A stretch of DNA of 64,000 nucleotides from a virus (taxonomy: Duplodnaviria > Caudoviricetes), in IMG/VR virus record IMGVR_UViG_2706794555_000001, positions 34,702 through 98,701 of that record, one strand, 5' to 3'. This document shows positions 37,716 to 64,000 of this stretch, one piece after another (position 1 is the stretch's first letter; every line of letters begins with the position of its first letter). Below the pieces are notes generated by a model that was not told the DNA's origin, searched no databases, and saw nothing but the letters and a program-made list of their open reading frames with translations. Position numbers and translations under genes: made by a program.

Positions 37716-37891
37716 ATGAACAGCACGCTGGTGACGGTCGTGGGGCATGTGGCCTCGGATGTGCGGTACGCGACCACCGCGAACGGGGTGCCGGTGGCCA
37801 GCTTTCGGCTGGCGGCCACCGACCGGCGGTTCGACAAGCAGCGGGAGGTGTGGGTGGACGGGGACACCAGCTTCTACACCGTCTGGTCGTG
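37716..37891 (+). pseudogene. ssbB: Single-stranded DNA-binding protein (SsbB-type), 5' part, interrupted by the integrated element
   Basis: VTVVGHVASDV..T.NG.PVASFRLA.T.RRFD....WVDG.TSFYTVWS is the SSB OB-fold N-terminal half; a stop follows two codons past the junction. Confidence 0.9.
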
Positions 37892-37914
37892 CTCCTGAAC
37901 GCCTGACTATAGAA
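37867..37914 (+). other. Left attachment junction, crossover TG at 37890-37891
   Basis: ...GTCTGGTCG-TG-CTCCTGAACGCCTGACTATAGAA; CTGAACGC (37895-37902) is the inverse of GCGTTCAG (63633-63640). Confidence 0.85.
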
Positions 37915-37922
37915 TAGCCCGC

Positions 37923-39524
37923 ATGGCTCTCGGGAAACACCCCCTTCGCGTTGTCGGCGTACTTCGATTGAGTAACGAGACGGACGAGTCGACGTCCATC
38001 GAGCGACAGCGCGCCCTCGTCAAGAACTGGGCCCAGGCCACCGGGAACGTGATGGTCGGCTGGTCGGAGGACGTGGACGTGTCCGGCGGCATCCGACCAT
38101 TCGCCCGCCCCGAGCTCGGCCCGTGGCTGGCCACCCCGGAGCGGTTCGACGCCCTAGTCGTATGGAAGCTCGACCGCCTCACCCGACGCGCCGCCCACTT
38201 CGTCGAGCTGCGGGACTGGGCCGAAGAGCACGGCATCGCCATCGTCAGCGTGACCGAGGGCTTCGACCTCAGCACCGCCATGGGCAAGATGTTCGCCACG
38301 ATCATCGCCGCGTTCGCCGAGGGCGAGCTGGAGACCATCCGGGAGCGCACCCGCGGCTCCCATGCCAGGCTCCGTCAGATCGGCCGCTACGCGGGCGCTC
38401 CGTGGCCCATGGGCTACCGCGCAGTGGATCTGCCCACCGGGGGCAAGACGCTCGTCCCAGAGCCCGAATACGCCGAGATCCTGCGCGGCATCATCCGCGA
38501 CGTCACCGAGGGCGTCTCCACCGCCGAGATCGCCCGGCGCCTCAACGCCGCGGGAGTGCTCACCTGGGGCGACAAGCGCGCGGAGCTGCGTGGTGCGGAG
38601 CCTGCGGAGACGCGTCAGCGGTGGACTGCGGACGTCGTGCAGCAGATCGTGCGGAACCCGGTCTGCGCCGGCTACCGGACCGAGAAGACCAAGGCGGAGG
38701 ACGGCCGCTTCCTCCGGGCAGCGAAGATCGTCTATGACGAGGACGGCAACCCCGTGATGGCCACCACCACGCCGGTGGTGACGCCGTCGGAGTGGATGAA
38801 GGCCAGGACGGCGATGATGGCCCGCGGCACCACGGTGGAGCGTGCGGCCCGAGCTGAGTCGATGCTGCAGGGCGTCGCCAAGTGCGGCAGCTGCGGTACC
38901 AACTTGTACCAGCATCGGCAGACCAAGAAGCTCAAGAGCGGGACCCGCGAGTACTGCTACTACCGCTGCCAGGGCGAACGAAAGGGGCACGACTGCGCCA
39001 GCCCCGCCAACATCGACGTCGACTCGGCCGAGCGCGAGGTCGGCGCCGCCCTGCTGTTCATCCTCGGGCAGAGCGAGATCACCCGGCTCGACCATGATCC
39101 CGGCGAGGACTACAGCGCCGAGATCATGGAGGCGCGTCGGCGGCTCGACGAGTTGGAGGATGACTACCTGGTGGGCAAGTACGACTCCCCCGAGGGCAAG
39201 CGCCGGTACGAGCGGCTGCACGCCCGCGCCTGCGACCAGGTCGACCGGCTGCTCGCCCTGCCGGTACGCCGGGCTTCGACCCGGACCGTGGGCAGCGGGG
39301 AGACGTACGGGCAGCGCTGGGAGCGGTGCGACCGACTGGAGCGGCGCGCGTTCTTGCTGGAGCAGGAGTTCGCCGTCACGGTCCACGCTCCGGGCACGCT
39401 GGAGCATCCGGTGACCGGGGAACTCAACACGGCCCCCGCGGTCGTCCTGGAGGTCCCTGAGAGGCTTCGTGGGACCCCTGGGGCTCCCGTGTTCACCGTG
39501 CCGCCGGGCACTCGACTGGGATAG
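37923..39524 (+). CDS. int: Large serine recombinase (integrase)
   Basis: LRLS catalytic Ser, S.ERQ, DVSG, RPEL, VWKLDRL.R; recombinase domain; Zn ribbon CGSCG...YYRC; coiled coil. TAGAAT 7 nt before ATG suggests a leaderless mRNA. Confidence 0.95.
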   Translation: MALGKHPLRVVGVLRLSNETDESTSIERQRALVKNWAQATGNVMVGWSEDVDVSGGIRPFARPELGPWLATPERFDALVVWKLDRLTRRAAHFVELRDWAEEHGIAIVSVTEGFDLSTAMGKMFATIIAAFAEGELETIRERTRGSHARLRQIGRYAGAPWPMGYRAVDLPTGGKTLVPEPEYAEILRGIIRDVTEGVSTAEIARRLNAAGVLTWGDKRAELRGAEPAETRQRWTADVVQQIVRNPVCAGYRTEKTKAEDGRFLRAAKIVYDEDGNPVMATTTPVVTPSEWMKARTAMMARGTTVERAARAESMLQGVAKCGSCGTNLYQHRQTKKLKSGTREYCYYRCQGERKGHDCASPANIDVDSAEREVGAALLFILGQSEITRLDHDPGEDYSAEIMEARRRLDELEDDYLVGKYDSPEGKRRYERLHARACDQVDRLLALPVRRASTRTVGSGETYGQRWERCDRLERRAFLLEQEFAVTVHAPGTLEHPVTGELNTAPAVVLEVPERLRGTPGAPVFTVPPGTRLG

Positions 39525-39540
39525 ACACCGAGAACGCGCG

Positions 39541-39570
39541 CGGCCTGGCAGCACGATTCCTGCCAGGCCG
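39541..39570. terminator. Hairpin between convergent genes
   Basis: CGGCCTGGCAG-N8-CTGCCAGGCCG. Confidence 0.6.
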
Positions 39571-62293: not shown

Positions 62294-63021
62294 CGGACAC
62301 CGGCCAGGGCGTCGAGCTCGGCCGGGCTCTGGGCAGGCTGGGCGTGGTGCTTGCCAGCGTGGCCAGCCTGCCGTGTGCAGCTCTTTCCGTCGGCGCTGAA
62401 GTGTCCGCACTGCGGTCCGGCGTGAAGTCGGGCTAGCCGCCGCCGTGCACGGTCACGCTCGCGTCGGCACTCGCGGCATCCACGCGCCCCTTCGGGACCG
62501 ACAACCGTGTTGGCCTCGTCGTAGGCGTGATCCTGCGGACACCGCGTCTTCCCGGCGTTGACCGCCGCGAGCGTGTGGCGCGACCGGAGGAGGTTCGTCC
62601 CGGGTGGCACGGCTTCCAGGTGGCCCACGTTGAGGCACCTCCGGTGCAGGCAGGTCGCACCGCCAGCGCAGGACGCGTCCCGGTTGTGGCAGGTGTGGTC
62701 GACGTGCAGGCCCTCCGGGACCGGGCCGATCAGCAACTCGTGAGCGGCACGGTGAACCAGGACGGGACCGCCGCCGAAGGACAGGACTCCGTAGCCGGTC
62801 CTCTTGGCCACGTGACCGGTCCAGATGTGGCAGCCGCCCCATCCGGCGGCGACCTTCTCCATGAGCCGGTCGATCAGCGGGCGGTCCGGCTGCAGGCTGG
62901 TGTAGTCGCCGGCCTGCTTGAGCGCCTTGAGGTGGCGCTGGTAGCAGGCGCCGCAGCGGCCCCGGCGGAGGCCGGTCTTATCGGGGTGTCCGCCGCAGTC
63001 GGCGCAGAGGTTGATGGTCAT
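62290..63021 (-). CDS. HNH endonuclease
   Basis: C.IWTG....GYG, HRAAHE, VDH.C...C.N..HLE.V...N and KT.CP..H motifs. Confidence 0.85.
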   Translation of the reverse strand: MTINLCADCGGHPDKTGLRRGRCGACYQRHLKALKQAGDYTSLQPDRPLIDRLMEKVAAGWGGCHIWTGHVAKRTGYGVLSFGGGPVLVHRAAHELLIGPVPEGLHVDHTCHNRDASCAGGATCLHRRCLNVGHLEAVPPGTNLLRSRHTLAAVNAGKTRCPQDHAYDEANTVVGPEGARGCRECRRERDRARRRLARLHAGPQCGHFSADGKSCTRQAGHAGKHHAQPAQSPAELDALAGVR

Positions 63022-63548
63022 CGCACACCCGCCAGGGCAACGAACTCCGCGTTGACGGCCTCGGACGGGGTGTCCAGCTGTACGCGCCGGACCTTGAGGC
63101 TGGGGGCCGAGGAGCGCATCGGCACGACCCCGAGTCCCAAGCGTTTATACGTGGCCCGGATTTCCTCCAGGTCGGCCACCATGCGGCCGGACGGCTCGCG
63201 GGTGACCTCCCAGTCGCCGTACCTGCCCGGCATCAAGCGGCTGAGGACCTTCTTGCTGGCCCGCTTCTGCCGGTCGGCGGTGCGGGCGGCGTCGGCGGCG
63301 CGGAAGTAGGAGGCGGCTGCGGTCTCGATGTCGGCGACCGGCGGCATGTCCGCGTCGGTGAACAGCTCGGCCGCCTCGACCTCGGCCAGCTCGGGCTGCG
63401 TGGCCGGCTGGACCACGGGGGTGCGGAACTCGGAGGTTGCCGCGGTGACGCGGGCAACGATTCGAGTGGTGAACTCGCGGACGGAGCGGAGGCTCGACAT
63501 GCGCGAGCGGGGTGCGAACGTGGTCTGAGGGGTGCGAAGATCCTGCAC
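63018..63548 (-). CDS. Hypothetical protein, first gene of the leftward transfer operon
   Basis: AAGGAG RBS before GTG; ATGA overlap with the HNH gene. Confidence 0.65.
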   Translation of the reverse strand: MQDLRTPQTTFAPRSRMSSLRSVREFTTRIVARVTAATSEFRTPVVQPATQPELAEVEAAELFTDADMPPVADIETAAASYFRAADAARTADRQKRASKKVLSRLMPGRYGDWEVTREPSGRMVADLEEIRATYKRLGLGVVPMRSSAPSLKVRRVQLDTPSEAVNAEFVALAGVR

Positions 63549-63620
63549 AGCCGTCTCCTTGTTTGCTCAAGGTGCTCGGTCAGGCCCTGCCCGGAGCTGG
63601 AATCTCCTGGTGGGGCCGCT

Positions 63621-63668
63621 TTCTCTGCTAGCGCGTTCAGTGGTGGAGGTGGTTGGCGGAGAACGTGC
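63621..63668 (+). other. Right attachment junction, crossover TG at 63644-63645
   Basis: TTCTCTGCTAGCGCGTTCAGTGG-TG-GAGGTGGTTGGCGGAGAAC; the SSB reading frame resumes here. Confidence 0.85.
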
Positions 63669-64000
63669 TCGCCTCCGTCGGACGGGGCGATCCACTGCTG
63701 GTGACCGGGCGGATGCGGGTGAGGGAGTGGGACAACGGGGAGGGGAAGGCCCGGGGCTACGCCGCCGAGATCGAGGCGACTGCGATCGGGCACGATCTGT
63801 CTCGCGGAACCTCGGCGTTCCGCCGGGCCGTGCGGGCGCGGCCCGAACTGGTGGCCAAGGCCTCGACGCGGGCCGCCGGGCCGGAGGAGGTACTGCCCGG
63901 CGACCAGGGAAAGGGGACACCGGCCGATCCGCGGTCCGCGGCACCCGCTCCGGTCCTGGTAGGAGCCGCCGCGGCGGGGGACGGCGAACCGGGTGTGTAA
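63644..64000 (+). pseudogene. ssbB: Single-stranded DNA-binding protein (SsbB-type), 3' part
   Basis: WRWLAENV.AS...GDP..V.GR.RVR.W......EIEA.AIGHDLSRG is the SSB C-terminal half; no acidic DxxPF tip, as expected for the SsbB paralogue. Confidence 0.9.

Follow-up and report, generated by a model that had tools for sequence, protein, structure and literature searches.

A mobile element with a large serine integrase splits ssbB of Streptacidiphilus and probably uses the gene as an ordinary landing site

The window analyzed in this study (a stretch of 64,000 nucleotides, positions 34,702 to 98,701 of the virus record IMGVR_UViG_2706794555_000001) lies on contig C124 of a genome of 8.46 Mb in 139 contigs, assigned to Streptacidiphilus by the names of the closest protein matches. 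Its right part contains an integrated mosaic mobile element of 25,752 bp (37892-63643), present in a single copy in the genome, which interrupts ssbB, a gene encoding a single-stranded DNA-binding (SSB) protein paralogue, between the second and third bases of codon 59. We consider it probable that this self-mobile mosaic uses ssbB as an ordinary integration target and, as a part of the same explanation, that its integrase belongs to a clade specific for ssbB codon 59 across the Streptomycetaceae. A large serine integrase of the Bxb1 class would thereby insert the element into an attachment site (attB) of ~50 bp centred on this codon, the central dinucleotide of the element's own site (attP) being matched to the codon of the host. 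The gene would serve as a conserved, non-essential target, and the transfer or induction programme of the element itself, not host development, would presumably trigger excision. This explanation is preferred because the mobility genes are intact, related integrases are found with unrelated cargoes and in free forms, occupancy of the site is rare and ssbB is lost naturally in other species.

The split gene, its attachment sites and the integrase

The 5' part of ssbB (37716-37898, + strand) starts with the ATG at 37716 and is native up to the TG at 37890-91. It consists of 58 native codons, beyond which the DNA of the element supplies C TCC TGA, i.e. Cys, Ser and a stop codon (37896-98), and it is 64–97% identical to residues 1-58 of intact orthologues. 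The 3' part (63644-64000, + strand) extends from codon 59 (TG at 63644-45) to the stop codon TAA (63998-64000), which coincides with the end of the window; it has no start of its own upstream and is preceded by an in-frame TAG (63629-31). Across the join, 58 + 1 + 117 codons give an SsbB of 176 aa, colinear with its intact relatives. The loci of the 11 best-scoring of 22 other genomes of the genus were retrieved (L007-L017), and in all 11 the ssbB halves are contiguous, with a single TGG codon between them and the sequence SWRWLAENV spanning the join. The left flank of ssbB (with a tRNA-Arg gene) and its right flank (89–97% nucleotide identity) are likewise kept in all 11 loci. An intact 176-aa SsbB at 100% identity was absent from a set of 5.8 billion proteins, in which only the 111-aa call of the window was present.

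These results confirm what a preliminary description of this DNA had stated, namely that ssbB is split and can be joined at TG (37890-91 / 63644-45), and that the gene stays broken as long as the element is in place. The same description had stressed that excision restores the gene exactly in frame. The frame is indeed exact; however, this is no special feature, as any excision by a serine integrase yields the same. Integration truncates SsbB, and excision by the integrase together with a directionality factor necessarily rebuilds the gene. In-frame restoration is inherent to conservative site-specific recombination and therefore provides no argument for developmental timing.

The site attL (37866-37917, + strand) carries the element arm CTGAACGC in its right half, with the exchange located within GTG (37889-91), whereas attR (63620-63671, + strand) carries the element arm GCGTTCAG in its left half, next to the TG at 63644-45. 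As GTG is the sole sequence common to attL and attR at the junction, the exchange can be placed only within these 3 bases, of which the centre of symmetry selects TG. On the element side, the two arms (GCGTTCAG, 63633-40, and CTGAACGC, 37895-902) form perfect 8-bp inverted repeats, each 3 bp from TG, and the outer matches beyond them include TTCT/AGAA. In the attP reconstructed in this way 15 of 26 positions are symmetric, compared with a background of 7.4 ± 2.4 for 9,136 sampled positions of the window, of which 0.26% reach 15. The symmetry about TG with its TTCT/AGAA matches had been noticed in the preliminary description and is thus corroborated. The site conforms to the pattern known for large serine integrases (~50 bp, inverted arms, a non-palindromic central dinucleotide and a position adjoining the integrase gene), and a comparable attP architecture is present in 4 relatives. 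Integration of the tRNA type was considered and rejected: the sole tRNA gene (Arg-TCT, 37196-37269, - strand) lies outside the element, just upstream of ssbB. This tRNA gene has very deep coverage in soil metagenomes, which is expected for a conserved tRNA.

The integrase gene (37923-39524, + strand; 533 aa) is co-oriented with ssbB and starts 24 nt past the stop codon of the truncated frame. Its product combines resolvase, recombinase and zinc-ribbon domains in a single protein, as is characteristic of large serine integrases, and all three Pfam matches are above the cut-off (Resolvase PF00239, 6.5e-30; Recombinase PF07508, 1e-11; Zn_ribbon_recom PF13408, 4e-9). It also matches phrog_95 (1.9e-110), and its best relative of solved structure is PDB 9iu2 (2.2e-42), a 500-aa protein named 'Integrase', which, judging by its length, we take to be the integrase of Bxb1. 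Residues R15 and S17 are invariant among 15 relatives. The earlier reading of the sites as those of a serine integrase stands in so far as the three-domain integrase and the pattern of the att sites agree with it.

The target itself can be assigned to the SsbB type. The intact orthologue from L007 (178 aa) scores 97 bits against PDB 4dam (SsbB of S. coelicolor) vs 69 bits against 3eiv (SsbA), and it has no acidic DEPPF tail, as in SsbB; the SsbB identity proposed in the preliminary description is therefore supported. Three further SSB genes are present in the genome, i.e. ssbA adjoining rpsF and two genes whose products have DEPPF tails, located on contigs C59 and C121. The latter two were tried as a second SsbB and rejected, as they score 190 bits against a mycobacterial SSB and 151–159 bits against SsbA (3eiv), but no more than 49.6 bits against SsbB (4dam). 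The split gene is consequently the sole one of the SsbB type, the other three being of the SsbA type, and another intact ssbB, named earlier as an observation that would speak against a switch, was not found in this genome. The SSBs of C59 (L002, 1270-1974) and C121 (L003, 1297-1890) are closer to the mycobacterial SSB than to the housekeeping SsbA and share an N-terminal leader, …HPL(M/L)SWEDTVSVGETTITIVGNL…; their genes may be located on other mobile elements.

Related integrases and the occupancy of ssbB

Relatives of the integrase fall into three tiers: metagenomic proteins with 68–80% identity, proteins of about a dozen Streptomyces strains with 56–60% identity, and all others with at most 40% identity (mycobacteriophage serine integrases being ~34% identical). 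With an alignment-based profile, a scan of species-representative genomes gave 80 loci with integrase relatives, whereas a scan with the single protein gave none. The N-terminal half of SsbB (residues 1-58) was found right upstream of the integrase gene in only one of these 80 loci, L018 of Streptomyces sp., whose integrase (57% identity) is also the sole one exceeding 50%. There, the C-terminal half of ssbB lies 9,106 bp from the N-terminal half, the join reads FTVWANRQLA as in 4dam, and the single other SSB of the genome is SsbA-like. The exchange took place at AA, with which codon 59 (AAC) begins, i.e. at the same position as the TG of TGG in Streptacidiphilus. The integrase is the only gene common to the 25.7-kb Streptacidiphilus element and the 9.1-kb Streptomyces element.

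In a collection of viral contigs, three loci encode integrases with 59–70% identity, and all of them have an un-integrated attP upstream of the integrase gene, with arms CGTTCG(G)/(C)CGAACG, 3-bp spacers and AA in the centre. The central dinucleotide of attP thus tracks the codon of the host (TG with TGG, AA with AAC). One of the loci, L117, is a contig of 9,126 bp that we regard as circular because the integrase gene wraps round its ends. It encodes an HK97 capsid protein (3010-4218), the serine integrase and helix-turn-helix (HTH) regulators, and it is 77–84% identical at the nucleotide level to parts of the element integrated in the Streptomyces ssbB. Capsid-forming phage satellites are known (cf-PICI type), and L117 resembles such a capsid-encoding satellite of a Streptomyces phage, as it has an integrase, regulators and a capsid gene although its genome is much smaller than that of a phage. 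This likeness concerns the relatives, whereas no capsid gene was recognised in the Streptacidiphilus element. In another locus, L115, a homologue (58% identity) of the gene at the right end of the Streptacidiphilus element adjoins attP, and a TraB-like protein and a DnaB helicase are also encoded. These free attP forms show that members of the clade excise or circulate in nature, and they have no bearing on when this happens. According to the proposed explanation, the integrase/attP module would be carried by unrelated cargoes, i.e. the 25.7-kb hybrid, a syntenic TraB-bearing element and elements of 9–10 kb.

A scan of metagenomes for the integrase gave 5 loci, the closest of which, L103 (54% identity), has no ssb half upstream. 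At 2380-2438, upstream of its integrase gene, a palindromic stretch, CGTACG…CGTACG, and an oppositely oriented gene were observed; the stretch may represent a further form of attP, directed at some other site.

The site is rarely occupied. Each of the 22 other genomes of the genus has a single match to the 3' half of ssbB, and in 21 of them the single ssbB match begins at residue 1 and extends to residue 124 or beyond, which gives an occupancy of 1 in 23 species. In the remaining genome (G016, 76% complete) the 3' half appears as two adjacent, overlapping pieces with a TGA (C4:5328333-5328582), a pattern suggestive of a frameshift or an assembly error rather than an insertion. The intact protein was then used to search 400 other genomes of the family, of which 399 were judged (G030 was left out). 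A split Streptomyces ssbB is expected to leave a match to SsbA near 1e-19 as the best one, as is the case with the L018 genome. None of the 399 genomes has a split ssbB, and the matches listed cross the split point, save for the window's own. Eleven genomes had a best score at the SsbA level; ten of them (G164, G191, G218, G244, G256, G327, G397, G207, G213 and G354) were rechecked and contain only SsbA-like matches spanning the split point, so that ssbB is absent from them and not split. These genomes without an SsbB-type gene constitute ~2.5% of the species, an observation of interest beside the strong ssbB phenotype of S. coelicolor. The survey for interruptions at the same codon, suggested by the preliminary description, was hence positive for the Streptomyces L018 (codon 59, AAC) and negative for the 399 judged genomes of the family.

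Landing site, advantageous knock-out or conditional switch

Large serine integrases that insert into protein-coding genes of the host are well known, e.g. those of Bxb1 (groEL1), phiC31 (a pirin-like gene) and TG1 (dapC). The element described here resembles this class in its three-domain integrase, the ~50-bp attP adjoining the integrase gene and a host gene that is disrupted and not rebuilt; it differs in its carrier, which is a mosaic of the conjugative/satellite type and not a phage. Serine recombinases are also used by 19 of 144 integrative and conjugative elements of actinomycetes (AICEs), some of which reside inside protein genes (Ghinet 2011), and a pSAM2-like element with a serine integrase, Sco3937, was described in thiC (te Poele 2008). 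Precedents thus exist for serine-integrase elements inserted in protein genes, for AICEs that use a serine integrase and for elements whose excision reconstitutes a gene, and the new content is the family-wide ssbB target together with the codon-matched core. No paper describing an actinomycete ssbB, or its codon 59, as attB was found in a search that left supplements, such as Table S1 of Ghinet 2011, outside its range.

Several observations weigh against ssbB as an ordinary landing site. In S. coelicolor ssbB is non-essential, but its disruption leads to a white phenotype with ~30% of DNA-free spores (Paradzik 2013); lasting inactivation of ssbB should hence carry a cost, so that a conditional restoration retains some scope. 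This role of SsbB in sporulation has been shown for S. coelicolor only. Moreover, the halves of ssbB show no additional damage in either host, and the integrase gene lies directly downstream of the 5' part, co-oriented with it and with no terminator-like site between them, so that host transcription could reach the integrase. With regard to the self-mobile nature of the element, its TraB-like protein remains below the cut-off of the Pfam family FtsK_SpoIIIE (17.9 bits), and neither a Nudix nor a RepSA-type gene was found among the 30 scanned element frames, the small frames being covered in part.

It is unlikely, although conceivable, that the knock-out of ssbB is in itself useful to the element, i.e. 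that SsbB might hinder its replication, transfer or packaging and that the target is selected for its loss of function, as with mobile elements entering genes of competence and DNA processing. One codon is taken by elements with different cargoes, which is consistent with such a benefit, and mobile elements also occur in the non-orthologous competence gene ssbB of S. pneumoniae and S. mitis, which is listed as a prophage insertion target in a review (PMC12378983). In both instances a secondary ssb paralogue is a landing site and becomes inactivated; however, the streptococcal gene belongs to another paralogue family, to competence biology and to another phylum. Actinomycete SsbB is not known to act on mobile elements, serine integrases often insert into conserved genes with no known gain, and the elements have no ssb gene of their own.

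Very unlikely, in our estimation, is a conditional switch, in which excision in sporogenic aerial hyphae (or in some of the chromosome copies) would restore ssbB and the element would re-integrate or persist. The model would be provided by skin in sigK, SPbeta in spsM (SprA and SprB), gin in gerE and skinCd, which, as they are summarized in the literature, are likewise serine-recombinase elements in genes used in sporulation, rebuild the frame upon excision, and are excised through the sporulation-specific expression of a recombinase or directionality factor in a mother cell that is later discarded. The Streptacidiphilus element, unlike these, is fully mobile, rare in occupancy and found in a host without a mother cell. 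Intervening elements are kept within a lineage and are often degenerate or immobile, whereas here 1 of 23 species of the genus and 0 of 399 genomes of the family are occupied and the elements are intact. The view of the element as possibly skin-like, expressed in the preliminary description, is not upheld: it is no domesticated remnant but an intact mobile mosaic with free attP relatives, and none of the present results indicates an excision timed to sporulation, as had been inferred there.

The switch would gain plausibility from the lack of a second SsbB-type gene in the genome, from the strong null phenotype in S. coelicolor (Paradzik 2013), from the undamaged state of both ssbB halves and from the position of the integrase gene 24 nt past the 5' part, an arrangement without a terminator-like site that recurs in the Streptomyces case. 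In addition, integrases with no more than 57% identity to each other have retained this target. Against it stand the automatic nature of the in-frame restoration, the rare and patchy occupied state, the full mobility of the elements with their unrelated cargoes and free forms, and the existence of 10 sampled species that live without ssbB. Spores are the germ line of the Streptomycetaceae, and there is no terminal, discarded mother cell in which the element could be lost harmlessly. Furthermore, excision by serine integrases requires a separate directionality factor, and the integrase alone has no excision activity.

Sequencing runs provide one further observation pertinent to the switch. The runs listed for the window stretch are soil metagenomes, whose word share does not exceed 0.43, with none from an isolate or from RNA, and their contigs cover the host flank and the element at 99–100% identity and 2–6x depth. 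In one run (X3), a 444-nt contig matches 37479-37891 with a single mismatch but not attL in the 31 letters that follow; it leaves the host flank exactly at the crossover, and the same run also contains contigs of the element. By our own estimate, given ~130 loose ends in four runs over a length of 7 kb, the chance of a loose end at a given base is ~2%. The contig could reflect excision or, in a strain that is nearly identical, a site that is empty or taken by something else, and strain polymorphism explains it equally well. No contig bridging 37891/37892 was present among those listed, and no contig with the alternative junction was present in the genome's own assembly, in which only contigs of at least 2 kb were kept.

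A syncytial form of the switch is highly improbable, but it would circumvent one of these difficulties. Transcription from the ssbB promoter into the integrase gene, together with a directionality factor of the element, might excise the element from some of the ~50 chromosome copies of a sporogenic aerial hypha; the excised copies would then supply SsbB in trans for segregation, and the other copies, or a re-integrated circle, would carry the element into the spores. As excision would be confined to a subset of the chromosome copies, the germ-line problem would be avoided. What little probability the idea of a switch has derives from the strong null phenotype in S. coelicolor and from the integrase gene, which has the orientation of the ssbB 5' part and no terminator-like site in front of it. 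If it were true, actinomycetes would have their first known case of a gene reconstituted in the manner of skin, and no earlier case would have done without a discarded mother cell.

No more credible is a frozen insertion, in which the element would no longer be able to excise and ssbB would simply be lost, since this is compatible with the 10 sampled species of the family without an SsbB-type gene and, as a weak point, with the lack of an alternative-junction contig in an assembly limited to contigs of at least 2 kb, but it is contradicted by the intact integrase frame with its invariant residues, the perfect att arms, the open state of all large frames, the undamaged ssbB halves and the close relatives found as free attP forms.

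With ssbB as an ordinary landing site, the element would represent a clade of serine integrases with a mapped attB in a gene present in ~97% of the sampled Streptomycetaceae. Its natural attP variants, in which the dinucleotide tracks the codon, might serve as new tools for integration, although their use breaks ssbB. One integrase/att module would move between elements of the conjugative type and capsid-encoding elements of the satellite type. The natural ssbB knock-outs in two genera can be used to test how general the segregation role of S. coelicolor SsbB is, and the system bears on whether actinomycetes have any gene-reconstituting excision.

Gene content of the element and adjacent regions

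Measured against published AICE criteria (te Poele 2008; Ghinet 2011), the element is, as predicted from its genes, AICE-like with an atypical replication module. It would join an actinomycete conjugative module (a TraB-like translocase and a GntR regulator) with a replication module of the P4/satellite type. As in AICEs, it encodes an FtsK/SpoIIIE-type transfer protein, a GntR regulator and an integrase with attP adjoining its gene (te Poele 2008), and it shares with them a replication gene, the serine type of the integrase and insertion into a protein gene. In place of RepSA/RepAM/Prim-Pol and Nudix (Pif), however, it has a P4-type primase-helicase, and it further differs from AICEs in its extra phage-family genes, a second (tyrosine) recombinase and its size (25.7 kb vs 9–24 kb for classic AICEs). 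All large frames of the element are open, and its GC content is 0.708, compared with 0.690 in the window to its left. A prophage was rejected as the nature of the element, as no capsid, portal, terminase or tail family was found among the 30 scanned frames.

The putative transfer protein (56675-58927, - strand; 750 aa; phrog_1358, 1.5e-13) shares 58.5% identity, across 85% of its length, with the FtsK/SpoIIIE protein encoded by a circular Streptomyces plasmid of 13.5 kb, which has the genes typical of classic AICEs; the tblastx comparison with this plasmid, mostly high-GC noise, was used for TraB and GntR alone. The GntR/UTRA regulator (53265-54035, - strand; UTRA, 2.5e-18; GntR, 3.4e-15) occupies a position like that of KorSA in AICEs, where the role of GntR Kor proteins has been described (te Poele 2008). 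The P4/D5-type primase-helicase of the replication module is encoded at 43182-44774 (+ strand; TIGR01613, 1.4e-48; DUF5906, D5_N; phrog_6088, 7.5e-72), and the mid-element tyrosine recombinase at 50886-51884 (+ strand; Phage_integrase, 2.1e-10; phrog_1, 6.5e-19). An HTH protein of the excisionase family (48339-48731, + strand) matches HTH_17 (2.6e-8), TIGR01764 (27.8 bits, cut-off 28.8) and phrog_7506 (3.2e-6), which is annotated as 'recombination directionality factor'; judged by these matches, it is a weak candidate for such a factor. No small gene common to all the related elements was found.

Other genes include two paralogous phage-family genes of the HTH_38 type located within 46784-48113 (46784-47362 and 47607-48113, + strand; phrog_5536, 1e-28 and 4e-34), two DUF6907 genes, and genes for a T5orf172/MUG113 protein and an HNH endonuclease. 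At the right end, next to the att site, lies a gene without an assigned function (63018-63548, - strand), whose homologue with 58% identity is the one found just upstream of attP in L115. For two genes, a paralogue is present further to the left in the window: the HTH_38 gene 47607-48113 shares 38% identity over 92 aa with the frame 1419-1694 (within 1413-1886), and the gene 54496-54759 shares 53% identity over 75 aa with 33922-34143. Both hint at a satellite-helper relation or a shared gene pool. Homology of the element to the putative left-window prophage in the manner of a 'mini-scaffold' was rejected, as tblastn failed to reach an E-value of 1e-4.

Upstream of ssbB, a hexamer pair (37377-37404) was considered as the promoter of this gene and is probably not, as transcription of ssbB of S. 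coelicolor, a monocistronic gene, starts 73 nt upstream of the AUG (Paradzik 2013). Only the -10-like part of this pair is conserved. It belongs to a 20-nt block, GCGGTCTGATAATCGCAGGT (37385-37404, with the -10-like GATAAT), which is invariant in 12 of 12 Streptacidiphilus species within variable surroundings. The block is situated between the tRNA-Arg gene and ssbB, ~310 nt upstream of the latter, which is too distant for a start of the S. coelicolor type. A search of Rfam gave no match at 37385-37404, and a second short conserved block, GCGCAGCG, follows the first one. On the other side, the gene downstream of ssbB (64001-65497) is unusually conserved, with 89–97% nucleotide identity across 11 Streptacidiphilus species.

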